This document shows, one piece after another, positions 6,120 through 59,064 of a stretch of DNA of 64,000 nucleotides. The translations under genes were made by a program, and so were the position numbers. Within the stretch, counting starts at the first letter, position 1. The number at the start of each line of letters is the position of its first letter. The notes below the pieces were generated by a model. It searched no databases. It was not told the DNA's origin and worked only from the letters and a program-made list of their open reading frames with translations. This stretch comes from Escherichia coli (GTDB lineage Bacteria > Pseudomonadota > Gammaproteobacteria > Enterobacterales > Enterobacteriaceae): assembly GCF_009931435.1 (NCBI RefSeq), contig NZ_CP043414.1. The stretch is one strand, 5' to 3'.

Positions 6120-6322
<203 letters not shown>

Positions 6323-30108: not shown

Positions 30109-30264
30109 AGATAGTCGAATGGTGGGGAAAAGTCACTCGAAATACGTATGAGATGACGAATGCCACACTTTGCGTCTTATTCCTCCGACGTAGAGTCGTT
30201 TACGCAGCAAGCGCGGAGTATGTCATCAGGGTCAAGAATTGAAATTGAGAGATGCCTGAATAGC

Positions 30265-30291
30265 AAAAAAGCGCCTTTAGGGCGCTTTTTT
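30265..30291 (-). terminator. duplicated copy of lysQ-distal terminator hairpin
   Basis: aaaaaagcgcc-tttag-ggcgctttttt; identical to the copy at 30421-30447. Confidence 0.55.
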
Positions 30292-30295
30292 ACAT

Positions 30296-30401
30296 TGGTG
30301 GGTCGTGCAGGATGACTCACTTCGCTCGCCCTTCGGGCCGTCGCCGCAAGCGGCTCCGTTGTTTCGCTGCGCTCTACTCGAACCTGCAGCAGGTTCGAAT
30401 C
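30296..30401. repeat. tRNA-Lys-derived remnant
   Basis: Starts with the 3-prime-terminal 17 nt of tRNA-Lys then diverges; ends with an inverted T-arm-like segment gcaggttcgaatc. Confidence 0.6.
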
Positions 30402-30420
30402 TTTGAATATCGCAGATAGC

Positions 30421-30447
30421 AAAAAAGCGCCTTTAGGGCGCTTTTTT
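30421..30447 (-). terminator. Rho-independent terminator after lysQ
   Basis: Hairpin agcgcc-tttag-ggcgct flanked by A and T runs, immediately 3-prime of the last tRNA. Confidence 0.65.
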
Positions 30448-30451
30448 ACAT

Positions 30452-30527
30452 TGGTGGGTCGTGCAGGATTCGAACCTGCGACCAATTGATTAAAAGTCAA
30501 CTGCTCTACCAACTGAGCTAACGACCC
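30452..30527 (-). tRNA. lysQ: tRNA-Lys (UUU)
   Basis: 76-nt exact reverse complement of tRNA-Lys, anticodon loop CTTTTAA, CCA encoded. Confidence 0.95.
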
Positions 30528-30559
30528 CTTGCGGGATTATGCTGCTTTAATCATTCAGG

Positions 30560-30632
30560 ATGGTGGGTCGTGCAGGATGACTCGACTTCGTCTCGCCCTT
30601 CGGGCCGTTGCTGACGCAACGTTATCCTTCAC
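30560..30632. repeat. intergenic spacer repeat of the tRNA operon (tRNA-Lys 3-prime-end-like)
   Basis: tggtgggtcgtgcaggatgactcgacttcgtctcgcccttcgggccgttgctgacgcaacgttatccttcac; near-identical at 31276-31347. Confidence 0.7.
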
Positions 30633-30659
30633 ATTCTCTACCAGTAACCACCTTTAAAT

Positions 30660-30735
30660 TGGTGGGTCGTGCAGGATTCGAACCTGCGACCAATTGATTA
30701 AAAGTCAACTGCTCTACCAACTGAGCTAACGACCC
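30660..30735 (-). tRNA. lysZ: tRNA-Lys (UUU)
   Basis: 76-nt copy identical to lysQ. Confidence 0.95.
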
Positions 30736-30783
30736 ATACGGGTGTTACCTGAATGATTTCTACTCGGGACCAATCTTTAATAT

Positions 30784-30853
30784 TGGTGGATCGTGCAGGA
30801 TGACTCGCTTCGCTCGCCCTACGGGCCGTTGCTGGCGCAACGTTATCCTTCAC
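30784..30853. repeat. intergenic spacer repeat (diverged copy)
   Basis: tggtggatcgtgcaggatgactcgcttcgctcgccctacgggccgttgctggcgcaacgttatccttcac. Confidence 0.65.
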
Positions 30854-30881
30854 GCTTAACATCTGAGTTTGATGTTAAAAC

Positions 30882-30957
30882 TGGTGGGTCGTGCAGGATT
30901 CGAACCTGCGACCAATTGATTAAAAGTCAACTGCTCTACCAACTGAGCTAACGACCC
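30882..30957 (-). tRNA. lysY: tRNA-Lys (UUU)
   Basis: 76-nt copy identical to lysQ. Confidence 0.95.
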
Positions 30958-30960
30958 GAG

Positions 30961-31036
30961 TGGTGGGTGATGACGGGATCGAACCGCCGACCCCCTCCTT
31001 GTAAGGGAGGTGCTCTCCCAGCTGAGCTAATCACCC
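30961..31036 (-). tRNA. valZ: tRNA-Val (UAC)
   Basis: Reverse complement of tRNA-Val, anticodon loop CTTACAA, T-loop GGTTCGATCC. Confidence 0.93.
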
Positions 31037-31086
31037 GATACTGCGCTGGATACTACAAACTACTTCCACCGAACCCACCGCATTAG

Positions 31087-31162
31087 TGGTGGGTCGTGCA
31101 GGATTCGAACCTGCGACCAATTGATTAAAAGTCAACTGCTCTACCAACTGAGCTAACGACCC
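31087..31162 (-). tRNA. lysW: tRNA-Lys (UUU)
   Basis: 76-nt copy identical to lysQ. Confidence 0.95.
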
Positions 31163-31164
31163 GG

Positions 31165-31240
31165 TGGTGGGTGATGACGGGTTCGAACCGCCGACCCCCT
31201 CCTTGTAAGGGAGGTGCTCTCCCAGCTGAGCTAATCACCC
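31165..31240 (-). tRNA. valT: tRNA-Val (UAC), T-loop variant
   Basis: Same as valZ except one base (GGTTCGAACC instead of GGTTCGATCC). Confidence 0.9.
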
Positions 31241-31275
31241 GATACTACGCTGGATACTACAACTAACTAGGTTAG

Positions 31276-31347
31276 TGGTGGGTCGTGCAGGATGACTCGA
31301 CTTCGTCTCGCCCTTCGGGCCGTTGCTGACGCAACGTTATCCTTCAC
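31276..31347. repeat. intergenic spacer repeat of the tRNA operon
   Basis: Near-identical to 30560-30632. Confidence 0.7.
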
Positions 31348-31375
31348 GTTTTACTACCGCTTCCACCTTAGCGAT

Positions 31376-31451
31376 TGGTGGGTCGTGCAGGATTCGAACC
31401 TGCGACCAATTGATTAAAAGTCAACTGCTCTACCAACTGAGCTAACGACCC
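31376..31451 (-). tRNA. lysT: tRNA-Lys (UUU), first gene of operon
   Basis: 76-nt copy identical to lysQ. Confidence 0.95.
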
Positions 31452-31615
31452 ACTTTTTCGTTGCTTTCGGTTTGTTTGATATCCCGTGGCAACGGCGGCA
31501 TATATTACTGATTTCAGACTTGAGCGCAACAAAAATTTCGATGTAGATCACTCAACTGCTTATGATTCGCACGACACGACCAGAAATAATGCAACTTCTG
31601 GTCGTGTGTTATGCA

Positions 31616-32407
31616 TTACATCGCGTTCAGACGTTTTTGCGCCTGTTTTGCGCCATCAGTACCAGGGTATTTACTGATAACCTGCTGGTATACGGCTTTC
31701 GCTTTTGCGGTGTCACCTTTGTCCTGCATGATGACGCCGACTTTAAACATCGCATCTGCAGCCTTCGGTGACTTCGGATAGTTTTTCACTACCGAAGCAA
31801 AATAATACGCCGCATCATCTTTTTTACCCTTGTTGTAGTTTAACTGACCCAGCCAATAATTGGCGTTTGGCAGATAAGTTGAATCAGGGTAATTTTTGAT
31901 GAAATTCTGAAATGCCACCATTGCGTCATCCTGGCGGGATTTATCCTGCACCAGCGCAATAGCTGCATTGTAATCCGTGTTTGCATCACCGCTTTTCACC
32001 GGCGCGCCAGCATTCGCAGTACCAGCATCAGCTGTCGGCGTCGTTGATGCCGCCGCACCGCTTTGATCGCCGCTGGTTGATTGCGCCGCTGCACCACCGC
32101 TGCTGAGGCTATCGATCTGCAACAGGATCTGCTTTTGCCGCTCCACGACCTGATTCAGTTGATACTGATTTTCCTGAATCTGACCACGCAGGGAATCAAT
32201 ATCGGATTGATTATCAGAGAGTTGTTGCTGGAGTTGGGTTAAAAGCTGGCTGTGAGCATTAGAAATACGCTCAAGTTGAGTGACGCGGTCTTCGACCGAG
32301 CCTGAGCCGACACTACTGATTGGTGCCTGAGCAAAAGCGGCCCAGGGGGCCGCTATACCAACCAGTAACGACAGACTCAATAGTTGATGTCTGAAGTTAC
32401 TGCTCAT
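31616..32407 (-). CDS. cpoB: cell division coordinator CpoB (YbgF), TPR protein
   Basis: 263 aa ORF with signal peptide, Gln-rich coiled coil and TPR C-terminus. Confidence 0.93.
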   Translation of the reverse strand: MSSNFRHQLLSLSLLVGIAAPWAAFAQAPISSVGSGSVEDRVTQLERISNAHSQLLTQLQQQLSDNQSDIDSLRGQIQENQYQLNQVVERQKQILLQIDSLSSGGAAAQSTSGDQSGAAASTTPTADAGTANAGAPVKSGDANTDYNAAIALVQDKSRQDDAMVAFQNFIKNYPDSTYLPNANYWLGQLNYNKGKKDDAAYYFASVVKNYPKSPKAADAMFKVGVIMQDKGDTAKAKAVYQQVISKYPGTDGAKQAQKRLNAM

Positions 32408-32416
32408 GCAATTCTC

Positions 32417-32962
<546 letters not shown>

Positions 32963-41272: not shown

Positions 41273-42295
41273 ATGAGCGATTTTTGCAAGTTAGTTTTTC
41301 TATTGCCGGGTACGCTGAGCGCCTCGCTTGATTACAATGAGGTTGCTGCCATGGGTCTTGATAATATAGGTTCTGTTGTCAATCGCTTCTCTGGTTGGCC
41401 ATCAAATGATCCTCTAAAAACAGATAACGAATCAATGACATCACCCGTGACTGTGCAGGTAATAAAGTTGATTGCCGCCATCCTTGACCCACATCGGATA
41501 GTCGTTGGTATCGATACACTTTATACAACGCAGCGCAAAACATTTACCTCAGAGGGTCAACAACTCATTGAATCAGCATTGAAAACACTTAATGTGATGA
41601 ATTTAAATAACCTGGAAACAGATCGTGATGAGGAGGGTAACTATCTGGCTTTTGGATATAACGTTGACACTCCTGACAGAATAACCGTTTCTGCTTATAA
41701 TGAAAAAAAACCTTTCTGTTATGGCCAATGTCTTTTAATACAGGATGAAGAACCAGATTTATTTAACCTGGTAAAAATTAAAACCTTTGAAGCCAGGCAT
41801 AATTATGTTTCTAAATTGATGAGCGATCCGGAATTTATGTTTAAATTCAGTTATAGCGCCCAACAAAATAGATTAGAACCTCATCTTCTGGTTCCCACTT
41901 ATTTCCCTCTGAAAACAAACCAACCGGTTACGCTAGAGGATGTACTGATACTTTATCGTTTCTTTAAAATGAATGGCGATTTTAATATATTAACATCAGA
42001 TGAATACATGAGTATCATGACACCTCTGATGAAGTGTGAGCGTAGTATCCACGACCATAACAGGTATGTGACGGGCAAAGATGCTCTTCTTCTGGACAAT
42101 CCTCCGTCTGGTAACCAGATATATTTCCATATTTCCCCTGACGAATCAGCAACACTTGTCCTTTATTTTTCAGACAATAACCTTGAATCCTTCGTCTTTG
42201 AAAATGATATTCCGAGCCAGTATCGACATTTCAAAATGTTTACCAATTTAGCACTAGTTATTGATCAGTTAACCGACGCCAATCAAATACTTTAA
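41273..42295 (+). CDS. hypothetical protein, no recognisable family, low-GC gene
   Basis: 340-codon ORF in about 33 percent GC DNA; no Shine-Dalgarno at first ATG; alternative start ATG 41351 has GAGG 9 nt upstream. Confidence 0.6.
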   Translation: MSDFCKLVFLLPGTLSASLDYNEVAAMGLDNIGSVVNRFSGWPSNDPLKTDNESMTSPVTVQVIKLIAAILDPHRIVVGIDTLYTTQRKTFTSEGQQLIESALKTLNVMNLNNLETDRDEEGNYLAFGYNVDTPDRITVSAYNEKKPFCYGQCLLIQDEEPDLFNLVKIKTFEARHNYVSKLMSDPEFMFKFSYSAQQNRLEPHLLVPTYFPLKTNQPVTLEDVLILYRFFKMNGDFNILTSDEYMSIMTPLMKCERSIHDHNRYVTGKDALLLDNPPSGNQIYFHISPDESATLVLYFSDNNLESFVFENDIPSQYRHFKMFTNLALVIDQLTDANQIL

Positions 42296-42374
42296 TTTTC
42301 TATACAGCCCTGTGTAAAATATTGCTAAACAGTGCCCGGGGTTGATTTTTATTCCTCACGGTGATATTTAAATC

Positions 42375-42797
42375 ATGACACCATCTCAGCTCTCTTTTAA
42401 TACTCTTCCTGTCAATGCAACATGCACTTCAGAGATAACAGTAAACACACAAAAATTCTCTGACATCCTCTACTCAGTGGGGTATTCCCTAAAGGATCTG
42501 GCTTATCTGAGCAGATGTCTGGCATCATTACACCCGACACTCGCCAAAAACATTTATGAAACGGAAAATCTCAGCGATCAAAAATTACTTTATATAGATT
42601 GCCGTAGTACAAATGAAATCAAGATAAATATCTTTTTGGGTCAAAAAAGAGAAGAATTAATCGAAATTAGTTCTGATACAGTCATTTTTTCGATACTGTC
42701 TTCATTGATTGACTCAGTTATTTCTGAACATCGACATCAAATCCCCGTTAACGATTCAAATAATTCTGAACTATTTTATGAGGATTATACTGATTAA
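42375..42797 (+). CDS. hypothetical small acidic protein, no recognisable family
   Basis: 140 aa ORF, same strand, 79 bp downstream of the 340 aa ORF, AT-rich, acidic C-terminus (ELFYEDYTD). Confidence 0.55.
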   Translation: MTPSQLSFNTLPVNATCTSEITVNTQKFSDILYSVGYSLKDLAYLSRCLASLHPTLAKNIYETENLSDQKLLYIDCRSTNEIKINIFLGQKREELIEISSDTVIFSILSSLIDSVISEHRHQIPVNDSNNSELFYEDYTD

Positions 42798-43341
42798 ATC
42801 CACTCTGTACGAACCTGTCCTGCATTTATGCCAGAAGTATTAGAATCTTTGCTTAACGTTACTCATACAGTAGCACCTTCATGTGCCTCTCTTTTTTACG
42901 AAAAATCAAAAGAGCTAACAAAAGTCATTCTTCGCATGAATCATTAATTATTTGTTATTTTCAACATTATTTTTACATTAAGCATATATGAATTGCAGTG
43001 AAATTCGACTTAACTTTTATGAAATGCATTTACTCATGGCTAAAGCCACGTCACAAAAATGCAAATTAGAAGTTGATCACAATTATCTCAATCCATCAAA
43101 TCAAGTTAATTTTAAAAATTTAACATCCATGACATTAGTTGACATAACACGCTGAATTAAAATGAGAATTTAAAAAAACACTTTAAACAATCATTTCCCG
43201 AAAGACATTTTGAAAATAGATCAATTGCAACATTACGGTCAGATAAAGACACTCCTCTGATATTAAACCTGTGCCGTTATGAACGGCCATAAATACGACG
43301 TGTGTAACTTAATTTACTCTCTGTCTTACAAAGGATTACCC

Positions 43342-43791
43342 ATGAAGAAAGCAACACTTGTGATTGGCGTTATTGGCGCGGACTGCCATGCAGTAGGCAA
43401 TAAAGTTCTGGACCGCGTTTTTAGCAACCATGACTTCAGAGTCATTAATCTGGGCGTAATGGTCAGCCAGGACGAATATATTGATGCTGCCATTGAAACT
43501 GGCGCTGACGCGATTGTCGTCTCCTCTATCTATGGGCATGGCGATATCGATTGTCTGGGCATGCGCGAACGCTGCATCGAGCGTGGGCTGGGTAACATCC
43601 TGCTCTATGTGGGCGGTAACCTGGTGGTCGGAAAACATGACTTCGCTGACGTGGAAACCAAGTTCAAAGAGATGGGATTTGATCGCGTCTTTTCCCCAAG
43701 TCATGACTTAGAAGATGTTTGTCAGCTGATGGCCCACGATATCAACCAACGTCATGACGTTGATACTCGCATTCTTGAAGAGGCAATCTGA
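43342..43791 (+). CDS. glutamate mutase sigma subunit (B12-binding subunit)
   Basis: ORF 43279-43791; start placed at ATG 43342 after AAAGGA; [18 protein letters not shown] resembles the clostridial MutS/GlmS cobalamin-binding motif. Confidence 0.88.
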
Positions 43792-45179
43792 TGCAAATCG
43801 TCTCTGTCGATATTGGATCGACGTGGACCAAAGCAGCCCTCTTCACCCGGGAGGGGGACGCGTTAACGTTGGTTAACCACGTTCTGACCCCAACCACCAC
43901 CCATCATCTGGCGAAGGGGTTTTTCTCCAGCCTGGACCAGGTGTTAAACGTAGATGATGCCCTCCCCCTGTTAAACAGTGGTGAGGTTGCATTGAAGTAT
44001 TCCTCCTCTGCCAAAGGTGGGCTGGCGGTTGCCGCAATGGGAATAGTGCCTTCTATCACTCTGGAAACCGCGAAAGTAACCGCTCACTCTGCGGGTGCTA
44101 AAATTGCGCAATATTACGCCTACAAGCTGAACCGCCGTGATATCCAGGCACTGGAAGAAACGCAGCCCGATATTCTCTTGTTCACCGGCGGCACCGACGG
44201 CGGAGAAGAAAGCTACGGACTGAATAACGCCCGTGTGCTGGCAGAATCCAAACTCGACTGCGCCATTATTTATGCCGGAAACCGGGATATTCAGGACAAG
44301 GTGCAGGAGATCCTCGGGCATAAAGACCTGACCATCGTCGACAACGTTCTGCCCGATCTTGACCATCCGAACCCTTTAGCTGCACGCCAGGCTATCTGCG
44401 ACATATTCCTTAAACGCATCGTTAAAGGGAAAGGGCTGGATGTCATTGTTGATAAAACAGGCGAAGAACCAATGCCGACACCATGGACGGTCTTTGAACT
44501 GGTTAAGGCAATCAGTAACGTCGATCACAGCTGGAAAGAGTTCATGCTGATCGACATGGGCGGCGCAACCACCGATGTCTATTCCGCCTGTGCCAACACG
44601 CTCTCGCCCGACACTGTTTTACATGGCGTACCGGAACCCTTCGTAAAACGGACGGTGGAAGGCGATCTGGGAATGCGCGTCTCGGCAATGGTGGTTGGTG
44701 AAAGTGCGAAAGAGTTAGTCAGTGTGAATTTTGCTCAGCAACCCGCACAGTTGGACGCTTTTTATCATTACCTCCGTCATCTAGTCGCTCATCCCGACTA
44801 CTTACCCGCGAATGCAGATGAAAAATATTTCGATACCGTCCTGGCCGGACTGTGTGTGGGTTATGCCACCGAAAGACATGCGGGCACCAAAAAAGAGGTC
44901 TGCACCTGCGTCGGCAATGTCGATTTACAGATGGGACGTGACCTGACAACCGTGCGTAAAGTCGTGGGTTCCGGCGGATGGCTCTCGCGTGCCAGTCAGT
45001 TCGATATGCATCACTGGTTGAAATACCGCGAGTTAAACGACGACGGTAAACGCATTCTCTTACCGACCGAATTTGAATATTACCGCGATTCCCGGGGGCT
45101 ATTACCACTGCTGGCAAACGTCGCCAGAGTCGATCCGCTGGCCGCCGCGCGCACCAGTATTCAATGCTTAACCCTATAA
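43791..45179 (+). CDS. glutamate mutase accessory protein MutL/GlmL-like
   Basis: 462 aa ORF starting [18 protein letters not shown] (ASKHA-like ATPase N-terminus); 1-nt overlap with upstream gene. Confidence 0.85.
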   Translation: MQIVSVDIGSTWTKAALFTREGDALTLVNHVLTPTTTHHLAKGFFSSLDQVLNVDDALPLLNSGEVALKYSSSAKGGLAVAAMGIVPSITLETAKVTAHSAGAKIAQYYAYKLNRRDIQALEETQPDILLFTGGTDGGEESYGLNNARVLAESKLDCAIIYAGNRDIQDKVQEILGHKDLTIVDNVLPDLDHPNPLAARQAICDIFLKRIVKGKGLDVIVDKTGEEPMPTPWTVFELVKAISNVDHSWKEFMLIDMGGATTDVYSACANTLSPDTVLHGVPEPFVKRTVEGDLGMRVSAMVVGESAKELVSVNFAQQPAQLDAFYHYLRHLVAHPDYLPANADEKYFDTVLAGLCVGYATERHAGTKKEVCTCVGNVDLQMGRDLTTVRKVVGSGGWLSRASQFDMHHWLKYRELNDDGKRILLPTEFEYYRDSRGLLPLLANVARVDPLAAARTSIQCLTL

Positions 45180-45197
45180 CAATTAAGGCTGCAATCA

Positions 45198-46643
45198 ATG
45201 GAACTTCGAAATAAGAAATTAACCCATGACGAATTCATGACCGAGCGGCAACAGGTATTGAAAACCTGGGAAACCGGCAAGGATGTTGAAAACTTTGAAG
45301 ATGGCGTTAAATACCAACAAACCATTCCTGAGCATAAACGCTTCTCTCTTGCCCTGCTGAAAGCAGACAAGGAAGGTAAAACCCTTAGCCAACCGCGCGC
45401 AGGCGTGGCGCTGATGGACGAACACATCGAACTACTGAAAACACTACAAGAAGAGTGCGATCTGCTGCCGAGCACTATCGATGCATATACCCGTCTGAAT
45501 CGGTACGAAGAAGCTGCTGTAGGGATTAAAAAATCCATCGAAGCCGGAACCTCTAAACTGAACGGTTTACCGGTAGTTAACCACGGCGTCGCAGCTTGCC
45601 GTCGCCTCACCGAAACTCTGCAAAAACCGCTACAGATCCGCCACGGCACGCCAGATGCGCGTCTGCTGGCTGAAATCTCGATGGCCAGCGGCTTTACCAG
45701 TTATGAAGGCGGCGGCATTTCCTACAATATTCCGTATGCCAAGCGCGTAACGCTGGAAAAATCGATCCGCGACTGGCAGTACTGCGATCGTTTAATGGGG
45801 ATGTACGAAGAACACGGGATCCGCATCAACCGCGAACCGTTTGGCCCACTAACGGGTACGCTGATCCCGCCGTTTATCTCGCACTCTATCGCAATAATCG
45901 AAGGCTTGCTGGCACTGGAACAGGGTGTGAAGTCTATCACCGTTGGTTATGGTCAGGTCGGTAGCCTGACGCAGGATGTTGCGGCGATCCAGTCTCTGCG
46001 GGAACTTGCACACGAATATTTTCAGAGCTATGGCTATACCGACTACGAATTAAGTACCGTGTTTCACCAGTGGATGGGAGGCTTTCCGGAGGACGAATCG
46101 AAAGCGTTCGCCATTATCTCCTGGGGTGCTGCAGTCGCGGGGATGTCTGGTGCTACCAAAGTCATCACCAAAAGTCCGCACGAAGCCTGGGGCATCCCGA
46201 CTGCTGCTGCCAACATTCAGGGGCTAAAAGCCTCCCGCCAGATGCTCAACATGGTCAACGAGCAGAAATTCCCGCCGTGCCCGGCGGTTGAACTAGAAAT
46301 TGAACTGATTAAGAGCGAGGTTCGCGCTGTACTGAACAAAGTGTTCGAACTGGGTAATGGTGATATTGCGCGCGGTACGGTGCTGGCATTTGAAGCGGGC
46401 GTACTGGATGTGCCGTTTGCACCAGCCGCCTGCAACGCGGGCAAAATTCTTCCGGTCCGTGACAACACCGGCGCGATACGCGTACTGGAAGCCGGAGCCG
46501 TTCCATTGCCAAAAGATATTCTCGACCTCCACCACGATTACGTTGCGGAACGCGCGCGCTTTGAAGGACGCCAACCGACATTCCAGATGGTTGTAGATGA
46601 CATCAATGCTGTATCCCACAGTAAATTAATAGGAAGACCATAA
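45198..46643 (+). CDS. glutamate mutase epsilon (catalytic) subunit
   Basis: 481 aa ORF, N-terminus MELRNKKLTHDEFMTERQQVLKTW resembles clostridial GlmE/MutE. Confidence 0.88.
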   Translation: MELRNKKLTHDEFMTERQQVLKTWETGKDVENFEDGVKYQQTIPEHKRFSLALLKADKEGKTLSQPRAGVALMDEHIELLKTLQEECDLLPSTIDAYTRLNRYEEAAVGIKKSIEAGTSKLNGLPVVNHGVAACRRLTETLQKPLQIRHGTPDARLLAEISMASGFTSYEGGGISYNIPYAKRVTLEKSIRDWQYCDRLMGMYEEHGIRINREPFGPLTGTLIPPFISHSIAIIEGLLALEQGVKSITVGYGQVGSLTQDVAAIQSLRELAHEYFQSYGYTDYELSTVFHQWMGGFPEDESKAFAIISWGAAVAGMSGATKVITKSPHEAWGIPTAAANIQGLKASRQMLNMVNEQKFPPCPAVELEIELIKSEVRAVLNKVFELGNGDIARGTVLAFEAGVLDVPFAPAACNAGKILPVRDNTGAIRVLEAGAVPLPKDILDLHHDYVAERARFEGRQPTFQMVVDDINAVSHSKLIGRP

Positions 46644-47884
46644 TGAAAATAAAACAGGCCCTTTTTACCGCTGGCTACTCCTCATTCTATTTCGATGATC
46701 AGCAGGCGATAAAAAACGGAGCGGGTCACGACGGCTTTTTCTACACCGGAGAGCCGGTAACACAGGGGTTTAACGCCGTACGTCAGGCCGGGGAGTGCGT
46801 TTCGGTTCAGTTGATTCTGGAAAACGGTGCGGTCGCCGTAGGTGACTGTGCTGCCGTACAGTATTCCGGGGCAGGCGGTCGCGATCCACTGTTCCTCGCA
46901 GAGCACTTTATTCCGTTCCTCAACGACCATATCAAGCCATTACTGGTAGGCCGCGATGTGGATGCTTTCCTGCCGAATGCCCGTTTCTTCGACAAATTGC
47001 GTATTGACGGCAACTTGCTGCATACCGCCGTACGTTACGGATTATCACAGGCGCTGCTTGATGCTACCGCGCTGGCAACCGGCCGTCTGAAAACTGAAGT
47101 GGTCTGTGATGAATGGCAGTTGCCACGCGTGGCGGAATCCATTCCATTATTTGGTCAGAGCGGCGACGATCGATATATCGCCGTCGATAAGATGATCCTT
47201 AAGGGCATCGACGTGCTGCCCCATGCGCTGATTAATAACGTCGAAGAGAAACTGGGCTTTAAAGGTGAAAAACTGCGCGAATATGTCCGCTGGTTGTCAG
47301 ATCGCATTCTGAGCAAGCGCACCAGCGCACGCTACCACCCTACCCTGCACATCGATGTATACGGCACTATCGGTCTGATCTTCGATATGGATCCGCTTCG
47401 CTGTGCGCAATACATCGCCAGTCTGGAAAAAGAGGCGCAAGGCCTGCCGCTCTACATTGAGGGGCCGGTCGATGCCGGTAACAAGCCCGATCAAATCCGC
47501 CTGCTGACCGCGATTACCAAAGAGCTGACGCGCCTCGGTTCCGGCGTGAAAATCGTGGCCGATGAATGGTGTAACACCTACCAGGATATTGTTGATTTCA
47601 CTGATGCCGCCAGTTGCCACATGGTGCAAATCAAAACCCCGGATCTGGGCAGTATTCACAACATCGTCGATGCAGTTCTTTATTGCAACAGCCACAGCAT
47701 GGAAGCGTACCAGGGCGGCACCTGCAATGAAACTGATGTCAGTGCCCGCACCTGTGTCCACGTCGCCCTTGCTGCTCGCCCCATGCGTATGCTGGTAAAA
47801 CCAGGGATGGGCTTTGACGAAGGCCTCGATATCGTCTTCAACGAAATGAATCGTACTATCGCGCTGTTGCAGGCTAAGGATTAA
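46643..47884 (+). CDS. 3-methylaspartate ammonia-lyase
   Basis: 413 aa ORF, N-terminus MKIKQALFTAGYSSFYFDDQQAIKNGAGHDGFFYTGEPVTQGF is a close match to remembered methylaspartase (enolase superfamily). Confidence 0.88.
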   Translation: MKIKQALFTAGYSSFYFDDQQAIKNGAGHDGFFYTGEPVTQGFNAVRQAGECVSVQLILENGAVAVGDCAAVQYSGAGGRDPLFLAEHFIPFLNDHIKPLLVGRDVDAFLPNARFFDKLRIDGNLLHTAVRYGLSQALLDATALATGRLKTEVVCDEWQLPRVAESIPLFGQSGDDRYIAVDKMILKGIDVLPHALINNVEEKLGFKGEKLREYVRWLSDRILSKRTSARYHPTLHIDVYGTIGLIFDMDPLRCAQYIASLEKEAQGLPLYIEGPVDAGNKPDQIRLLTAITKELTRLGSGVKIVADEWCNTYQDIVDFTDAASCHMVQIKTPDLGSIHNIVDAVLYCNSHSMEAYQGGTCNETDVSARTCVHVALAARPMRMLVKPGMGFDEGLDIVFNEMNRTIALLQAKD

Positions 47885-47887
47885 CAA

Positions 47888-49258
47888 ATGGCTCGTTCTT
47901 TTAAAGTCTTATCGCCAACGGCAATCCTCGGGTATGGATTCCCGGAAGAGAGCTTCCGCAAAGCGATGGCAGAATCGCCCGATCTGATCGCCGTTGATGC
48001 AGGCTCTTCCGATCCTGGCCCCCACTACCTCGGGGCGGGCAAACCGTTTACCGATCGCGCAGGGGTCAAGCGCGATCTGCGCTATATGATCACCGCAGGC
48101 GTGCAAAATAATATACCGGTGGTGATCGGAACGGCCGGCGGTTCTGGTGCCGCTCCACACCTGGAGTGGTGCCGAGAAATAATTCATGAGATTGCCCGGG
48201 AAGAGCACCTCGCGTTCTCGATGGCGCTGATCCCGGCAGACGTTGACAAAGCCATCGTCCACCAGGCGCTGGATAACGGCAAAATCACAGCGCTGGATTT
48301 TGTCCCGCCGTTAACCCACGACGCGATTGACGAAAGTACGTATATCGTCGCGCAAATGGGCATCGAACCCTTCCAGCAGGCGCTGAAAGAAGGCGCGCAA
48401 GTGGTGCTGGGCGGGCGCGCTTACGACCCGGCCTGCTTTGCTGCGCTACCGATCATGCAAGGCTTTGATGAAGGTCTGGCGCTGCATTGTGGGAAAATCC
48501 TTGAATGCGCGGCAATCGCCGCAACGCCCGGCTCAGGCTCTGACTGTGCGATGGGCATCATTGATGACAACGGCTTTACGCTGAAGACATTTAATCCGAA
48601 GCGTAAATTTACCGAAACGTCAGCGGCTGCACACACACTGTATGAGAAATCCGATCCCTACTTCCTGCCAGGACCTGGCGGCGTGTTGAACCTGAAAGGC
48701 TGCACATTTAAAGCGGTCAATGACGGCGAAGTGTACGTCAGCGGTTCTAAGCATGAAGAAACGCCGTATGCCCTGAAACTGGAAGGTGCGCGGCGGGTGG
48801 GCTTCCGCTGTCTGACCATCGCAGGAACGCGCGACCCGATCATGATCGCCGGGATCGATAAAATCATCGATGAAGTCAAAACCAGCGTTTCGCGTAACCT
48901 GTCGCTCGACGATGACAGCATTCGCATCAATTTCCACCTGTACGGCAAAAACGGGGTGATGGGCGACCATGAACCGATGCAAACTGCCGGGCATGAGCTG
49001 GGGATTGTCCTTGATGTAGTTGCACCGACCCAGGATATTGCCAATAGCGTTTGCTCGCTGGTGCGCTCTACCATGCTGCACTACGGCTATGAAAACCGCA
49101 TCGCTACCGCAGGCAACCTGGCGTTCCCGTTCTCCCCTTCTGATATCCAGGGCGGGCCGGTATACGAATTTTCCATATATCACCTGATTGAAGCCAACGA
49201 CGCTCTGCGTTTTGATTTCCATATTGAACAGGTGACGCCAGAAGGAGTTCAGGCATGA
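47888..49258 (+). CDS. conserved protein of unknown function, tentatively DUF1446 / AtuA-like
   Basis: 456 aa ORF 3 nt after the lyase gene; family assignment from memory of an LIAVDAGSSDPGP-type N-terminal pattern. Confidence 0.7.
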   Translation: MARSFKVLSPTAILGYGFPEESFRKAMAESPDLIAVDAGSSDPGPHYLGAGKPFTDRAGVKRDLRYMITAGVQNNIPVVIGTAGGSGAAPHLEWCREIIHEIAREEHLAFSMALIPADVDKAIVHQALDNGKITALDFVPPLTHDAIDESTYIVAQMGIEPFQQALKEGAQVVLGGRAYDPACFAALPIMQGFDEGLALHCGKILECAAIAATPGSGSDCAMGIIDDNGFTLKTFNPKRKFTETSAAAHTLYEKSDPYFLPGPGGVLNLKGCTFKAVNDGEVYVSGSKHEETPYALKLEGARRVGFRCLTIAGTRDPIMIAGIDKIIDEVKTSVSRNLSLDDDSIRINFHLYGKNGVMGDHEPMQTAGHELGIVLDVVAPTQDIANSVCSLVRSTMLHYGYENRIATAGNLAFPFSPSDIQGGPVYEFSIYHLIEANDALRFDFHIEQVTPEGVQA

Positions 49259-49572
49259 AACAGTCAATTGTCTCACTGGCGCAAGTCATTCGTTCGAAAA
49301 ATGCCGGACCTTACGAACTGGTTTTAGATATTTTATTTAAAACGAAAGAAAACTATGAGCGAGTAAAATCATCAGGGCAATTAACCCCAGAACTGATTGC
49401 GCGCTTATATCATGTTGAACCTGACTTTATTCATCGTATTGTCTGGTTTGATCCTTCTAACGCAGTAAAAATTGTCATGCCACGAGATATTATCTCCGGG
49501 AATGTAGGTGACAATGATGTCTATGGCGCACAGCAACATGCACCTTTATTAAATATGAGTTTCGATTTGTAA
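49255..49572 (+). CDS. small conserved protein, tentatively DUF4387-like partner
   Basis: 105 aa ORF overlapping the preceding gene by 4 nt (ATGA coupling). Confidence 0.7.
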   Translation: MKQSIVSLAQVIRSKNAGPYELVLDILFKTKENYERVKSSGQLTPELIARLYHVEPDFIHRIVWFDPSNAVKIVMPRDIISGNVGDNDVYGAQQHAPLLNMSFDL

Positions 49573-49658
49573 AAATCCGAACACTTTTAGCCAACTGACA
49601 TCCCGTCACTTATTGCAGCTCAACACTTCAGCTATTTGTAAGGTTGTTATAGCAGGTA

Positions 49659-49684
49659 GATGCCTGAATCTCTATTCAGGCATC
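49659..49684 (+). other. intra-operon stem-loop (possible attenuator or processing site)
   Basis: 10-bp stem gatgcctgaa / ttcaggcatc with 6-nt loop; no clean U-tract. Confidence 0.3.
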
Positions 49685-49732
49685 CACTTCTCCTGATTCT
49701 GATTTATCGCCGTGCACCTGATGGAGGAAAAA

Positions 49733-51013
49733 ATGAAGAAAATAAGTTTAACCACGATGATTCTTTTGGCGCTGGTACTTGGAATGATTATCGGCGTAGT
49801 GCTCAATAACACTGCTTCACCGGAAACAGCAAAACTCTATGCGCAAGAAATATCGATATTCACGACGATTTTCTTACGACTGATAAAAATGATTATCGCT
49901 CCGTTAGTGGTCTCTACCCTGGTGGTAGGTATTGCTAAAATGGGCGATGCCAAAGCCCTTGGTCGTATTTTTTCTAAAACACTCTTTTTATTTATTTGCG
50001 CCTCATTGCTGTCAATTGCCTTAGGCTTGATAACGGTAAATTTCTTCATGCCAGGCACAGGAATTAATTTTGTTGCACACGGTGCCGAAACCACCGGAGT
50101 GGTCGCGTCAGAACCCTTTACACTAAAAGTATTTATTTCGCATGCTTTCCCCACCAGCATTGTCGATGCCATGGCGCACAATGAAATTTTGCAAATCGTG
50201 GTGTTCTCAATTTTCCTCGGCTGTAGCCTGACGGCGATTGGTGAGAAAGGCAGCGCCATCGTTCACGCCTTAGATTCGCTGGCACATGCCATGTTAAAGC
50301 TCACTGGCTACGTCATGCTCTTCGCTCCCCTGACCGTATTCGCCGCTATTTCAGCATTGATTGCTGAACGAGGACTGGCAGTTATGGTGAGCGCCGGGAT
50401 CTTTATGGGTGAATTTTATTTCACCATGTTATTACTTTGGGTGCTGCTTATCGGTCTGGCCATCGTTTATGTCGGCCCCTGCATCAGACGCCTGACCCGC
50501 GCCCTTTCAGAACCCGCCCTGCTGGCATTTACCACATCCAGTTCTGAAGCTGCTTTTCCGGGAACGCTTGAAAAACTGGAGCAATTTGGCGTTTCCCCCA
50601 AAATTGCCAGCTTTGTCTTACCCATTGGCTACTCATTTAATCTCGTTGGATCAATGGCCTACTGCTCCTTCGCCACAGTTTTCATCGCCCAGGCCTGCAA
50701 TATCCATTTATCCATCGGTGAGCAAATCACCATGCTGTTGATCCTGATGTTGACCTCGAAAGGAATGGCTGGCGTACCACGCGCCTCAATGGTGGTTATC
50801 GCCGCCACGCTCAACCAGTTCAATATTCCGGAAGCGGGGCTGATCTTGCTGATGGGCGTTGATCCGTTCCTTGATATGGGGCGTTCCGCGACAAACGTCA
50901 TGAGCAACGCAATGGGCGCTGCGATGGTGAGTCGGTGGGAAGGCGAACATTTCGGCGAGGGCTGTCGGGGTAAAGCATTAAAACCCAATGAATCGAACGT
51001 TGCTCTGCCCTGA
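49733..51013 (+). CDS. dicarboxylate/amino acid:cation symporter (DAACS, GltP/DctA family)
   Basis: ORF 49712-51013; start placed at ATG 49733 after GGAGG; polytopic membrane protein. Confidence 0.85.
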   Translation: MKKISLTTMILLALVLGMIIGVVLNNTASPETAKLYAQEISIFTTIFLRLIKMIIAPLVVSTLVVGIAKMGDAKALGRIFSKTLFLFICASLLSIALGLITVNFFMPGTGINFVAHGAETTGVVASEPFTLKVFISHAFPTSIVDAMAHNEILQIVVFSIFLGCSLTAIGEKGSAIVHALDSLAHAMLKLTGYVMLFAPLTVFAAISALIAERGLAVMVSAGIFMGEFYFTMLLLWVLLIGLAIVYVGPCIRRLTRALSEPALLAFTTSSSEAAFPGTLEKLEQFGVSPKIASFVLPIGYSFNLVGSMAYCSFATVFIAQACNIHLSIGEQITMLLILMLTSKGMAGVPRASMVVIAATLNQFNIPEAGLILLMGVDPFLDMGRSATNVMSNAMGAAMVSRWEGEHFGEGCRGKALKPNESNVALP

Positions 51014-51120
51014 GGGGGATCTTAAGCAATCAGAAGCCAATGACTACGCATTTTTATAAGCCGGATCATGAAGTTAGACGGCAATTAAGTAACACTAACG
51101 TTTAAGGTGAAAAGTGAAAT

Positions 51121-52773
51121 ATGTCCAAACCATTTATCTGGCAAGAACCGTTTCTACAAAATAAAGACGGTACAGAATATACATTAATTAGCGATCAACA
51201 TATTACAGTAACGGAATTAGACGGCGAAGAAGTAATAAAAATCGCTCCTGAAGCATTAACGCTGCTTGCCCGGCAGGCATTTTATGAAGCCTCTTTTTTC
51301 TTACGTTCCGCTCATTTGCAACAGGTCGCCAGCATTCTTAACGATCCGCAGGCCAGCAGTAATGATAAATACGTTGCGTTGCAGTTATTACGTAATGCTG
51401 AAGTCTCAGCAAAAGGGGTATTACCCAACTGTCAGGATACCGGCACCGCAACTATTGTTGCCAGTAAAGGGCAACAGATATGGACGGGAGGTAACGACGC
51501 TGAAGCCTTAAGCAAAGGCATTTACAGTACTTTCCAGGAAAATAATCTGCGCTTTTCACAAAATGCGCCGCTGGATATGTATACCGAAGTCAATACGCAA
51601 ACCAATCTTCCGGCGCAGATTGATATCAGCGCTGTCGCTGGTAATGAGTACCATTTTCTCTGTGTTAATAAAGGGGGCGGCTCCGCCAATAAAGCCGCAC
51701 TTTATCAGGAAACCAAATCCTTATTGCAACCAGAAAAACTGACCGCATTTTTAATCGACAAAATGAAATCGTTGGGCACGGCCGCCTGCCCGCCCTACCA
51801 CATCGCCTTTGTCGTCGGAGGGCTTTCAGCCGATCAAACCTTAAAAGTTGCCAAGCTGGCCTCTACGAAATATTACGACAATTTGCCCACCAGCGGAAAC
51901 GAGCAGGGACAAGCATTCCGTGATATTGAGCTGGAAAAAGCGTTGCTCGAGGCCAGTCAGCAATTTGGTATTGGTGCGCAATTTGGGGGTAAATATTTCG
52001 CTCATGATATTCGCGTCATTCGTCTGCCGCGTCACGGTGGCTCTTGCCCGATAGCTATGGCGCTCTCCTGTTCTGCCGATCGCAATATCAAAGCAAAAAT
52101 TAACAAGCATGGTATCTGGCTGGAAAAACTCGAACACAATCCGGGGCAATATATTCCAGCCTCACTGCGGGAAGAAAATCACGCGCAACATGTACAGCTG
52201 GATCTAAACCGTCCGTTGCGTGACGTGATGCAGGATCTCGCCAGATTACCGGTAGGTACCCGCGTGTCGTTAAGTGGTCCCATCGTAGTGGCGCGCGATA
52301 TCGCCCACGCAAAAATAAAAGCGCGGCTGGATAGCGGCGAATCGATGCCGGATTACCTGAAGCATCATATTGTCTATTACGCTGGCCCGGCGAAAACACC
52401 GGAGAACATGGCCTGCGGTTCACTGGGTCCAACCACGGGCGGTCGAATGGACGGTTATGTCGAAACCTTCCAGGCGGCTGGCGGCAGTCTGGTAATGTTA
52501 TCGAAAGGTAACCGCAGCCAGCAGGTCACCGATGCCTGTCACAAACATGCAGGCTTCAATCTGGGAAGTATTGGCGGTGCAGCTGCGTTACTGGCGCAAG
52601 AATATGTCAAAAGTCTGCGTTGCCTGGAATACCCGGAGCTGGGTATGGAGGCGGTGTGGATGATGGAAGTGGAAAATCTGCCCGCATTCATCCTGGTTGA
52701 TGATAAAGGCAATAATTTCTTTAGCCAGTTTGAGCAGCAACACCGCTGCGCCAGTTGCCCTGCGGGACATTAA
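51121..52773 (+). CDS. fumD: class I (Fe-S) fumarate hydratase family protein, mesaconase candidate
   Basis: 550 aa ORF, FumA/FumB length and fold; symbol from memory of the O157:H7 cluster. Confidence 0.8.
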
Positions 52774-52782
52774 GGAAAATGA

Positions 52783-53385
52783 ATGGAAGCGCGAATTTCA
52801 ACTGAACGGCATGTGCAGCGCCAACAGAAATTGAAGGAACAGGTCGATACGCGCGTCGCGGCGGCGATAGAGAAAAAAGGGATCTTGATTGTTTTCACCG
52901 GCAACGGCAAAGGGAAATCCACTGCCGCGTTTGGTACTGTGACGCGCGCGGTGGGTCATGGCAAAACGGTGGGGGTTGCGCAGTACATCAAGGGGCAATG
53001 GGACAACGGCGAATACAACCTTCTCCAGCCGCTGGGGGTTGAGTTTCATATTATGGGAACCGGTTTTACCTGGGAGACTCAGAACCGGCAAGCGGATATC
53101 GACGCGGCGAAAGAGGTCTGGTCGGAAAGCAAACGGATGCTGGCTGACAAGCGTTACGACTTAGTGGTGCTTGATGAGCTGACCTATATGCTGGCTTACC
53201 ATTATCTGGACACCGAAGAAGTGATCACTTCTCTGCAAAACCGCCCGGCACAACAAAGTGTCATTGTCACCGGACGCAGTTGCCACAGTCAGATATTAAA
53301 AATGGCGGATACGGTCAGCGAAATCCGCCCCGTCAAACATGCTTTTGATAACGGCATTCAGGCGCAGCCGGGTATCGACTGGTAA
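52783..53385 (+). CDS. cob(I)alamin adenosyltransferase, CobA/BtuR family paralog
   Basis: 200 aa ORF with P-loop IVFTGNGKGKSTAAFG; close to remembered K-12 BtuR. Confidence 0.85.
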   Translation: MEARISTERHVQRQQKLKEQVDTRVAAAIEKKGILIVFTGNGKGKSTAAFGTVTRAVGHGKTVGVAQYIKGQWDNGEYNLLQPLGVEFHIMGTGFTWETQNRQADIDAAKEVWSESKRMLADKRYDLVVLDELTYMLAYHYLDTEEVITSLQNRPAQQSVIVTGRSCHSQILKMADTVSEIRPVKHAFDNGIQAQPGIDW

Positions 53386-53418
53386 TAACTGCGCCTGGCA
53401 TCCAGCCAGGCGCAGGTT

Positions 53419-54324: not shown

Positions 54325-54480
54325 AATGCCGTCCCTTAAAAATAGTTTAAACCATCAAAAATACATTACTTATTACGAAGTAATGGTAACCAAAGCAGCA
54401 ATAAATAATTTATAAGAATCATGATTAACATTTATAACCCAGTAAGCCTGGCGTGACAATTATCTTAATCAGATAATAAT

Positions 54481-54509
54481 AATCCGAAAAGCACAGCACC
54501 TTTCGGATT
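54481..54509 (-). terminator. hairpin downstream of the HAL-like gene (weak terminator candidate)
   Basis: Stem atccgaaa / tttcggat with 11-nt loop, followed on the minus strand by ATTATTATTAT. Confidence 0.35.
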
Positions 54510-54594
54510 ATCAGGAATTACATTAAGTGAAAATTATTAAATTGATATCATTTATCATATCTGTGGATATAATGATAAACAATCAACATAGATT

Positions 54595-56265
54595 TTATTT
54601 TTGATTTATAGCATATCCCTCTAAGAATTTTTGCGATGCTTCAATATCCGGGGTAAAGACCCGATCCTGACTGACAAATGGCACGACTTGACGATAAGCG
54701 GTGAACATCGCTTTTGTTGATTTGCCTAACGCCAGCTGTGGATCGGCTTGCAAGCGCAAATCAATCGCCTGGGCAGAATGCATCAGTTCAATGCCATAAA
54801 TGACATTCAAATTATCAACAACCTGTTTCAATCTTCTCGCCGCGTGGTCGTTATTGGCACCCGTATCTTCAATGCCTCCGGCTACCGGTTGAATATCGAA
54901 AGAAACCGGGTTAGCGAGATCGACATTTTCCGCATGCAGCGCAACAAACGGGATATGTAATGAACCGAAGCCATGACCTTTATTACCTGCTGCCGACAGG
55001 AAGCGTGACAAACCGGTAAAGTGATCATCTTCAAGATGCAGCGAGCGGCGCATACTGTTATGTGAAACATGCACTAACGCCACGGTCAGACGCTGGGTGG
55101 CAAGCGCAACCGGTAACGATTCGAAATTCGCCGTCGGGAAGATCCCACCGCTGATTGCCCCATCTTTAACAAAATATTGCGCGACCTGACTGGAGTCCTG
55201 ATACGCTTTGTCTGCATTCAGCACGGTTGCCGGGTTGTCATCGGAACTGTTGATCTGCACGGTAATGGTATCTTCAGCATCGCGCAACGCGCGCATTGCC
55301 TCAGAAATGGTATACACCGTCGTTCTGAACGATAACGGATCCTGCAATGCACGTTTGTCATCCTTATGCCATAAATAAGAACCACTTAACGCATCGCGAA
55401 TCTCTTTAGCGGAATCAGCCAACTGCGGGAAAGGACGCACGGCGATCGACTGCGGCAGTACCGGCGCGACATTGCCATTCAACGCTTCGAGGCTCATGGC
55501 GAAAACCACCGGACTGACATTCAGCACCTGGCGTGCCGACCGTACCGCTTCAATTGCATATGCTGTTCCGACACTGTTGTTCGACAAAATCGCCAGCATA
55601 TCTTTACCCTGCGGGACCAGTGGTTTAAGCCCCACTTTCACCAGCGCATCGCCACCACTCATTTCCACGCCATTAACCCGCGCTTTCCACTCGCCCATCA
55701 TCACCAGACCAACGTGTGAAGCGAGCATAATATCCGCTGCGCCGATACTTCCCCGCGCCGGAATTAACGGCGTAACGCCTCGATTAATAAACTCGGCATA
55801 CAACTCGGCAATATAAGGCTGCGCGCCGGTTTGCCCATGCAACATAGTATTTAAACGTAACACCATTGAGAGACGGGCAAGATAATCCGGCAACATCGGA
55901 CCGACGCCCGCAGAATGGGCGCGCAGCGCGGCAGCATTAAATTTTTTCGATGCGTCAATCACCTCAGGCGTTAAATTTCCTTTGGCATCAAATATGGGCT
56001 GATCTTTATTTAGCCCCACGCCCACGGTTAAGCCATAAACAGGCGTACCTGAATGCGCGGCAGTCATCACCAGATCATAACTTTTTTCCATGCGCTCCAT
56101 GGCGTTCGACGCGATTTTGACGCCGTTATCACCTAATGCAATTGACCAGGCCTGGTCAATAGAGAGATGTTCGCCATCCAGCGTAATGGTTGATTTTGCC
56201 ATCGCGATGGAGCAAACGCTCCAGAGCACAACGGTGACAGTGACTCTGCGTATCAATCCTTTCAT
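54595..56265 (-). CDS. aromatic amino acid lyase (HAL/PAL) fold protein lacking the MIO triad, signal-peptide-like N-terminus
   Basis: 556 aa ORF; conserved GSVGASGDLAPLAH block reads GSIGAADIMLASH (codons checked at 55729-55752); N-terminus MKGLIRRVTVTVVLWSVCSIAMA; AAGGA 6 nt upstream of ATG 56265. Confidence 0.8.
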   Translation of the reverse strand: MKGLIRRVTVTVVLWSVCSIAMAKSTITLDGEHLSIDQAWSIALGDNGVKIASNAMERMEKSYDLVMTAAHSGTPVYGLTVGVGLNKDQPIFDAKGNLTPEVIDASKKFNAAALRAHSAGVGPMLPDYLARLSMVLRLNTMLHGQTGAQPYIAELYAEFINRGVTPLIPARGSIGAADIMLASHVGLVMMGEWKARVNGVEMSGGDALVKVGLKPLVPQGKDMLAILSNNSVGTAYAIEAVRSARQVLNVSPVVFAMSLEALNGNVAPVLPQSIAVRPFPQLADSAKEIRDALSGSYLWHKDDKRALQDPLSFRTTVYTISEAMRALRDAEDTITVQINSSDDNPATVLNADKAYQDSSQVAQYFVKDGAISGGIFPTANFESLPVALATQRLTVALVHVSHNSMRRSLHLEDDHFTGLSRFLSAAGNKGHGFGSLHIPFVALHAENVDLANPVSFDIQPVAGGIEDTGANNDHAARRLKQVVDNLNVIYGIELMHSAQAIDLRLQADPQLALGKSTKAMFTAYRQVVPFVSQDRVFTPDIEASQKFLEGYAINQK

Positions 56266-56315
56266 TGTGTTTCCTTATTTTGATGAGTTTAACAACGGAT
56301 TACTGCAACAACCTC

Positions 56316-57266
56316 TTAATTTGTTTTATCTGTTTTTCCTCGACGGACAATAGTGGCAGCCAGGCGAGCGGCAACCTTCGCGGTCAAATTATCGCGGTCC
56401 AAATCTGGGTTCAGTTCGGCAATATCCGCAGCAATCAACTTCTCGCTACCGGCAATTAAATTCACAATAGCCTCAGCAATATTTAATGGCACGCCTAACG
56501 GCGAAGGCGCAGAAACGCCAGGAGCCTGATAACCCGGTAAGACATCAAGACAAATCGTTAAATAAATGGCGTCACACGCCTGAATATCTGCCGAGAGCGC
56601 ATTAACAATCTCATGCAAACCACGTTCAAATTGCAGAGATTCATCCAGCCAATAACGCACACCAGGACAATCAGCACGATCAAATAACGCCTGAGTGTTG
56701 GCATAACGGCTTATTCCCAGCACGCGATAATGAAACGGTTTGCCATGCTGCGCATTCCACTCCTGCATCTGCCGAAACGGCGTACCCGAATTGGCCTTTT
56801 CCGCCATCCGCAAATCAAAATGCGCGTCAAGGTTGACTATCAGCAGTCGCCGAATATCCGGACGCGACTGCATAATCCCCTGAAATGTTCCCCATGCCAC
56901 TTCATGACCGCCGCCCAGAACGACCGGCAAACTGCCGCGCGCAATTGCCATAGCCACGTTTTCCGCCAGACGGTTTTGTGCGGGTTCCAGCGCGTGGTCT
57001 TCGCTTTGCACGTCACCCATGTCAAAAATAGCGCCTTCATGGAGCACTGGCATATTGCCCAACATGCTGCGTAATGCGCCCGGTCCGCCTGCTGCGCCCG
57101 CTCGCCCACCGTTACGTTGCACCCCGTCATCGACGGCAAAACCAATCAGCGTACTGCCTCCATGACTTTGTTCGGTAAACGGTTTTACATGCTGATGCCA
57201 GCGGGTGCTGACGCCAGTTTCCTGCGAGTCAACACGTCCACTCCATGCCATAAATGTTTGCTTCAT
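56316..57266 (-). CDS. hutG: formimidoylglutamase
   Basis: ORF 56316-57305; start placed at ATG 57264-57266 overlapping hutI stop (TAATG); arginase-fold motifs GGGHE and DAHFD. Confidence 0.85.
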   Translation of the reverse strand: MKQTFMAWSGRVDSQETGVSTRWHQHVKPFTEQSHGGSTLIGFAVDDGVQRNGGRAGAAGGPGALRSMLGNMPVLHEGAIFDMGDVQSEDHALEPAQNRLAENVAMAIARGSLPVVLGGGHEVAWGTFQGIMQSRPDIRRLLIVNLDAHFDLRMAEKANSGTPFRQMQEWNAQHGKPFHYRVLGISRYANTQALFDRADCPGVRYWLDESLQFERGLHEIVNALSADIQACDAIYLTICLDVLPGYQAPGVSAPSPLGVPLNIAEAIVNLIAGSEKLIAADIAELNPDLDRDNLTAKVAARLAATIVRRGKTDKTN

Positions 57267-58477: not shown

Positions 58478-59064
58478 AAGGATTTTTCCCCTCGTAGATA
58501 ATAAATCCACCAACCCGCCAGCTCGCCGACGGAGACTTTTTGCTGTGGTACGAAACGCCAGGAGTTGCCATCAGGCGCAAACCGCCATAACAACGTATTC
58601 GCCGTTACAAACACCCTGTTCTCGCCGCTTATCCACTCCCCTTCACACAGCGTGAACAGCCCCGCTTGCGCATGCGCCGGAGGGAGCCAGTCAATGACGC
58701 TTTGCACACGACGCATCCCCGCATCGCCTTCCCGCGCCATAATATTCAGATCGCGAACCCCGCCGCCCAGCAGCTGACAATCAGGCATTGCTTCTCCAGG
58801 GAAAATTAAGGCGGGATCGTGACGTTGCAGGTTGATGATCGAATCGGCAAACGTTAGCTTCACCCCTTCCCCGTCGAGGATCGCGAGGCCACGAACCACG
58901 CCAGGCCACGCTGAAAAAGGGCCATCCTGACTGACATTCGCCATACTGATGCGCAACAACCAGTTTTCATCATCGGGCCAGGCAAGCAGCTGTCGGGTAA
59001 ACCCCCCGCCGTTGCGCCACGGTTGCAGCGGCTTATCCATTGCAGAAATCAGCATCGGTTCCAT
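58474..59064 (-). CDS. hutD: HutD-family protein
   Basis: 196 aa ORF with WRNGGGFTRQL, matching the HutD N-terminal signature. Confidence 0.8.
   Translation of the reverse strand: MEPMLISAMDKPLQPWRNGGGFTRQLLAWPDDENWLLRISMANVSQDGPFSAWPGVVRGLAILDGEGVKLTFADSIINLQRHDPALIFPGEAMPDCQLLGGGVRDLNIMAREGDAGMRRVQSVIDWLPPAHAQAGLFTLCEGEWISGENRVFVTANTLLWRFAPDGNSWRFVPQQKVSVGELAGWWIYYLRGEKSL

Follow-up and report, generated by a model that had tools for sequence, protein, structure and literature searches.

In Escherichia coli K-12 MG1655, the tRNA genes valT (b0744) and valZ (b0746), which encode tRNAVal1, are part of the lysT operon, which is located between cpoB and nadA, has the gene order Lys-Val-Lys-Val-Lys-Lys-Lys, and contains spacers of 2 and 3 nt between the tRNA-Val genes and the tRNA-Lys genes that follow them. 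The five tRNA-Val(UAC) genes of this strain, valT, valZ, valU, valX, and valY, all read GGTTCGATCC in the T-loop, with U at position 59. This position belongs to the "variable pocket" at the elbow of the D- and T-loops, which is made up of positions 16, 17, 20, 59, and 60. U59 is an identity element of E. coli tRNA-Phe, and we know of no modification at position 59 of E. coli tRNAVal1. It has been reported that RNase P processes the lysT polycistron from its 3' end (PMC4176162), and that unmodified tRNAVal(UAC) adopts two conformers, as observed by NMR (PMC13052159).

The window analysed here, a stretch of 64,000 nt of E. coli DNA, contains an operon of the same kind. Between positions 30452 and 31451, the minus strand carries seven tRNA genes according to ARAGORN, five for tRNA-Lys(UUU) and two for tRNA-Val(UAC), all of which were also recovered by Rfam and all of which encode their CCA end (Table 1). 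The genes are transcribed in the order Lys-Val-Lys-Val-Lys-Lys-Lys with spacers of 135, 2, 50, 3, 146, and 132 nt, and the locus is flanked by cpoB and nadA in syntenic records. Location, gene order, and spacers, including the short Val-Lys spacers, are those of K-12, with the exception of one RtT unit, and the gene at 31165-31240 is therefore valT and that at 30961-31036 valZ, the two genes that an earlier note on this DNA had proposed to look up in reference genomes. A GC-rich hairpin with flanking A and T runs directly 3' of lysQ is presumed to be the Rho-independent terminator of the operon, by analogy with the biology of the K-12 operon (PMC4176162). A promoter and terminator scan gave no match to the sigma-70 consensus in 30200-31700, and the same scan also missed the hairpin 3' of lysQ.

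Table 1. Features of the lysT operon in the window
Feature	Position	Strand	Evidence
lysT, tRNA-Lys(UUU), operon gene 1	31376..31451	-	ARAGORN; Rfam; alignment
RtT-like unit in the lysT-valT spacer, ending in a pseudo 3' end of tRNA-Lys	31276..31375	-	Rfam RF00391, 60.6 bits (match 31276-31444, overlapping lysT); spacer sequences
valT, tRNA-Val(UAC), A59 allele; operon gene 2, first Val gene	31165..31240	-	ARAGORN; Rfam tRNA, 66.7 bits; alignment; synteny with K-12 valT and SE11
Variant nucleotide, plus-strand T giving A at tRNA position 59 (unpaired, T-loop); common allele U59	31182	-	Alignment
lysW, tRNA-Lys(UUU), 2 nt 3' of valT	31087..31162	-	ARAGORN; alignment
valZ, tRNA-Val(UAC), common U59 allele, identical to K-12	30961..31036	-	ARAGORN; alignment
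lysY, tRNA-Lys(UUU), 3 nt 3' of valZ	30882..30957	-	ARAGORN; alignment
lysZ, tRNA-Lys(UUU)	30660..30735	-	ARAGORN; alignment
lysQ, tRNA-Lys(UUU), final operon gene	30452..30527	-	ARAGORN; alignment
GC-rich hairpin with flanking A and T runs, directly 3' of lysQ (presumed terminator)	30421..30447	-	Read from sequence

The long spacers of the operon are occupied by RtT-like units. Four such units were found on the minus strand of the window by Rfam RF00391 with scores of 48-60.6 bits (30296-30418, 30561-30728, 30784-30950, and 31276-31444), one of them beyond the hairpin 3' of lysQ, and every one of them closes with a pseudo 3' end of tRNA-Lys (GCACGACCCACCA). The lysW-valZ spacer (31037-31086) is 50 nt long in the window and 149 nt long in both K-12 and SE11, which corresponds to one RtT unit (99 nt) fewer, and its junction lies at a common ...CCCACCA|CTAAT sequence. 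Judging from this junction, the missing unit would fit a deletion by recombination between the 3' end of lysW and the pseudo 3' end of an RtT unit. RtT copy number is variable among strains in every spacer of the operon, and in other strains units are missing from different spacers (35, 33, or 48 nt). Another peculiarity of this region is position 31593, located in a hairpin loop just 3' of the cpoB stop codon, where the window has A on the plus strand and all 13 loci compared, including that of Escherichia sp. E1V33, have G; this base is private to the window.

When the two tRNA-Val genes of the window were aligned, 75 of their 76 bases were found to be equal, and the sole mismatch was at tRNA position 59 in the T-loop, where valT has A (GGTTCGAACC) and valZ has T/U (the K-12 form). 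On the plus strand, this corresponds to T at 31182 in valT and A at 30978 in valZ. The earlier note had called attention to this single-base difference in the T-loop, had described the GATCC form in valZ as canonical, and had stated that the five tRNA-Lys copies do not differ from each other. The alignment bears out the difference and confines it to position 59, U59 is indeed the form of all five K-12 MG1655 genes, and the five tRNA-Lys genes are 100% identical. The difference between valT and valZ is real and recurrent, as the distribution given below shows, and a chance statistic is not applicable to one base.

The substitution lies outside the anticodon, the conserved residues of the T-arm, and the known valine identity elements. 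The anticodon UAC is found at positions 34-36 of valT (ARAGORN places tac at 34, and T34, A35, and C36 were read from the alignment), and the residues of the T-arm, G53-C61, T54, T55/U55, C56, G57, and A58, are unchanged between valT and valZ. The valine identity set has been reported to consist of A35, C36, A73, G20, and G45 together with a regular acceptor helix containing G3-C70 and U4-A69 (PMC9976931); all of these are present in both Val copies, and position 59 is outside this set. With the Rfam model RF00005 (gathering score 29), which was matched over positions 1-71 of 71, the A59 copy scored 66.7 bits and the U59 copy 65.9 bits; the A59 copy scores higher because the consensus of the model at that position is 'a'. 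The variant nucleotide is unpaired and non-conserved. Because position 59 lies beside G20, a minor determinant for valine, in the variable pocket, and serves as an identity element in E. coli tRNA-Phe, A59 may have a subtle kinetic effect. In the literature on U59 in tRNAVal, the A59 variant was not found.

The distribution of A59 in E. coli was determined from 5,426 complete genomes, which gave 5,428 matching records, with the best place reported for each record. The exact 76-nt A59 allele was found in 161 of the 5,428 records (~3%), and the remaining records were at one mismatch. With longer queries that include the gene context, 134 records were exact for valT (98-nt query consisting of the A59 tRNA-Val gene, CC, and the start of lysW) and 23 for valZ (135-nt query). 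Four of the 23 valZ records were inspected, and all four have U59 in valT and A59 in valZ, which is the opposite of the arrangement in the window. A59 in valX was found in at least one genome (13C1065T), and no A59 in the valU context was found among the complete E. coli genomes. In DSM 103246, the only Val gene combines A59 with flanks of the valZ type; the median number of tRNA-Val(UAC) places per genome in the complete E. coli set is 5. The A59 form of valT occurs on at least three operon haplotypes, which differ in spacer SNPs, RtT copy number, and the linked cpoB allele. RefSeq E. coli SE11 has A59 in valT and U59 in valZ, the same arrangement as in the window. Since the same allele is found in valT of SE11 and in 161 of 5,428 records, A59 is a standing polymorphism of E. 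coli and is not peculiar to the window. In the earlier note, the difference was taken for a possible anomaly, and this part of it does not hold; the comparison with reference genomes that it proposed turns up the very same difference, in SE11.

A59 is also found outside of E. coli. Escherichia sp. E1V33, which belongs to a different species and is 94.6% identical to the window, has A59 in valT. When one genome per GTDB species was scanned for the exact pattern of the 3' 50 nt of tRNA-Val(UAC) with A59, 34 stretches were obtained. The carriers include several Citrobacter, Klebsiella oxytoca, K. michiganensis, K. spallanzanii, K. indica, Raoultella, Kluyvera, Pluralibacter, Lonsdalea, Enterobacillus, and others, and in the ~22 non-Escherichia species of Enterobacterales, the gene that bears A59 always stands at the head of a Val-Val-Val-Lys cluster. 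This cluster adjoins gltX, and the A59 gene is therefore the valU orthologue. In Tatumella, all three Val genes of the gltX-adjacent cluster have A59. The presence of A59 in the first gene in ~22 species could be explained by an old arrangement that has been conserved, or A59 could have arisen more than once at this position. Counting the E. coli cases as well, four paralogous Val positions and many genera show the T-to-A change, which points to repeated origin or to spread by gene conversion or recombination.

The scan also returned two contigs with an enterobacterial A59 tRNA-Val that would not be expected in the organisms for which they are named. One, in the assembly of Chryseobacterium sp. 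18061, carries a full gltX-valU-type cluster with Val-Val-Val-Lys spacing of 53/39/4 nt, which is that of Citrobacter sp. 18056 from the same study. The other, in an Acidimicrobiales MAG, carries one variant Val gene only, near the end of the contig. Both contigs have the appearance of contamination or mis-binning in public assemblies.

How the window itself acquired A59 was considered by comparison with its relatives. In the four operon loci most like that of the window (R32_14_1F, 2020CK-00188, MFDS1022581, and N96), which show 2-4 differences per 1,200 nt, valT has U59. However, this says little, because R32_14_1F and N96 are well diverged from the window, the former by 1.1-1.8% over ~50 kb and the latter by 1.6% over 47 kb. 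Furthermore, the segment 31543-31082 of the window is identical to that of Z0117EC0005, a strain with A59. A private recent mutation in the window was dropped as an explanation on account of this identity and of the divergence of the relatives compared. The data would fit acquisition of A59 by mutation and by short-tract recombination equally well. Micro-conversion from the T-loop of the adjacent tRNA-Lys (GGTTCGAATCC) is possible in principle and finds no support, because the Val gene with A59 in other genera is the most distant from the Lys gene. The change from GGTTCGATCC to GGTTCGAACC creates a perfect 10-bp palindrome and removes a GATC Dam site. Quasi-palindrome correction was also considered as a source of A59 and was left as speculation, as the arms are just 5 bp long and have no loop.

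Several observations were made on the relatives and on other parts of the window. Among complete E. coli genomes that span the full 24 kb from 20000 to 44000, none is >98.7% identical to the window and most are 97.2-97.3% identical, and the best long alignments (6698-56424) are 98.2-98.9% identical; the lineage of the window is poorly represented among the 5,426 complete genomes. SNPs relative to R32_14_1F are unevenly spread and reach their highest density in 42000-44000 (104 differences), a pattern suggestive of a recombination mosaic. In N96, a 1-nt deletion and a substitution are found around lysY relative to other strains, and lysY is annotated with 73 nt; possible causes are an error in the assembly and damage to this tRNA-Lys copy. 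An 8.6-kb histidine-utilisation (hut) island (54343-62985), containing hutU, hutI, hutG, and genes for a HAL-family ammonia-lyase and a cytosine-type permease, is absent at the same site in N96 and complete in only 143 of the 5,426 complete E. coli genomes, and its closest copies (99.7%) are in R32_14_1F and 2020CK-00188. A methylaspartate (mesaconate-pathway) cluster is located at ~43300-53400, a position inferred from colinearity with annotated records, between cydA and the gene for a LysR regulator, as in N96 and R32_14_1F; its members are glmS, glmL, glmE, cobO, and the genes for methylaspartate ammonia-lyase, an AtuA-family protein, and fumarate hydratase. Two further RNA elements were detected by Rfam on the minus strand, the CpoB/ybgF intercistronic RNA thermometer (32378-32516, 142 bits, full length) and naRNA4/CssrE (6174-6244, 71.9 bits).

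The distribution of A59 and the integrity of the residues around it are very probably best explained if U59A in valT is a functional, near-neutral, recurrent isodecoder allele that is maintained as a standing polymorphism. The A59 tRNA would be transcribed within the polycistron and then freed by RNase P, and it would be charged by ValRS and used in translation like its U59 twin. It is expected to work like its twin because the cloverleaf, the conserved T-loop residues, the anticodon, and the known valine identity elements are all left intact by U59A. Its recurrence at paralogous Val genes and in different genera would result from repeated origin, or from recombination or gene conversion, and the copies in these genomes have not been homogenised by gene conversion.

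It could be argued that A59 in the window is a sequencing or assembly artefact, in which a base was miscalled or a variant was misplaced among near-identical repeats. The operon is highly repetitive, its two 76-nt Val genes being repeats at a distance of ~200 bp, and valT has U59 in all four of the operon loci most similar to that of the window. However, such an artefact would have to recreate the same substitution in the same gene as is found in a sister species and in 134 complete E. coli assemblies that are independent of each other, the identity of 31543-31082 to the A59 strain Z0117EC0005 speaks against it, and misplacement among repeats would still require reads that bear A59. An artefact is thus very improbable. 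We give even less credence to the idea that A59 marks a tRNA gene that is defective or in decay and is tolerated thanks to the presence of at least four other tRNA-Val(UAC) genes. A mildly impaired copy might survive in view of this redundancy, as there are five Val(UAC) genes per genome (median of 5 places), but the lone change is at an unpaired, non-conserved position and is towards the commonest base of the tRNA family consensus, so that the tRNA model score rises with A59. Moreover, a defective tRNA is hard to square with Tatumella, where each of the three Val genes in the valU cluster has A59, and the allele has been kept across genera without further changes piling up.

An explanation that we regard as unlikely, albeit less so than these two, is that A59 has been recurrently selected as an isodecoder that is robust in folding, as it would break a competing helix between 43-49 and 56-62, which contains a G46-U59 wobble, and would thereby favour the cloverleaf. 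In secondary-structure predictions with ViennaRNA, the minimum free energy (MFE) structure of the unmodified U59 transcript is not a cloverleaf (-34.6 kcal/mol, with a T-stem probability of 0.013), whereas the MFE structure of the A59 transcript is the cloverleaf (-32.1 kcal/mol, with a T-stem probability of 0.65); neither C59 nor G59 rescued the cloverleaf. On the basis of these predictions, the competing helix may be the second conformer of unmodified tRNAVal(UAC) seen by NMR. Such energy models, however, take no account of Mg2+, tertiary contacts, co-transcriptional folding, or modifications. The location of A59 would also fit selection for a copy that folds robustly: in the ~22 species of other genera, it is invariably the leading gene of the valU cluster that has A59, and in E. 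coli valT, the first Val gene of the lysT operon, accounts for most cases (134 records versus 23 for valZ). Since RNase P acts from 3' to 5', the first Val gene of a polycistron would be freed last, and this is where A59 could matter most. If true, selection against misfolding would explain why A59 turns up independently at three E. coli genes (valT, valZ, and valX) and at the valU orthologues of other genera, as well as its preference for the first Val gene, which has the longest wait for RNase P. Nevertheless, the first-gene pattern may represent a few old events inherited by related species, and the valZ and valX cases in E. coli break a strict positional rule. In addition, ~97% of E. coli genomes, including that of K-12, have only U59 and are fine.

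With the near-neutral isodecoder allele as the most probable explanation, A59 valT is an ordinary natural allele that is already documented in public genomes, and the base difference between valT and valZ represents a genuine, widespread allele that is neither an error nor a new feature. Annotators should therefore not "correct" an A59 valT to the K-12 sequence. The allele also provides a natural U59A form of E. coli tRNAVal(UAC), a well-studied molecule, with which a possible role of G46-U59 in the alternative conformer of the unmodified transcript could be probed.

Compared with the known systems, the operon of the window has the layout of that of K-12, with which valZ is identical (76/76) and valT is identical at 75 of 76 bases, the difference being U59 in K-12 and A59 in the window; the window also lacks the 99-nt RtT unit that K-12 has in the lysW-valZ spacer. 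The identical 76-nt A59 allele is found in valT of SE11 (NC_011415, ECSE_RS04185) and of ~133 other complete E. coli genomes, and SE11 has U59 in valZ as the window does. However, the spacer haplotypes of SE11 and the window differ (CTAACATAG...TATT against CTAACCTAG...TATC), as do their RtT unit counts, and thus the A59 allele is present on different backgrounds. The valU orthologue of Citrobacter, the Klebsiella oxytoca group, Raoultella, Kluyvera, Pluralibacter, and others has the same 3' 50 nt with A59, and there, too, one A59 gene is located beside U59 copies in a tandem Val cluster followed by tRNA-Lys, but this locus is the gltX-adjacent valU-valX-valY-lysV cluster, unlike the lysT operon of the window. 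Variation among bacterial isodecoders is usually small and has been little studied. As in tRNA isodecoder genes generally, the two tRNA-Val genes of the window share the same anticodon and differ in the tRNA body.
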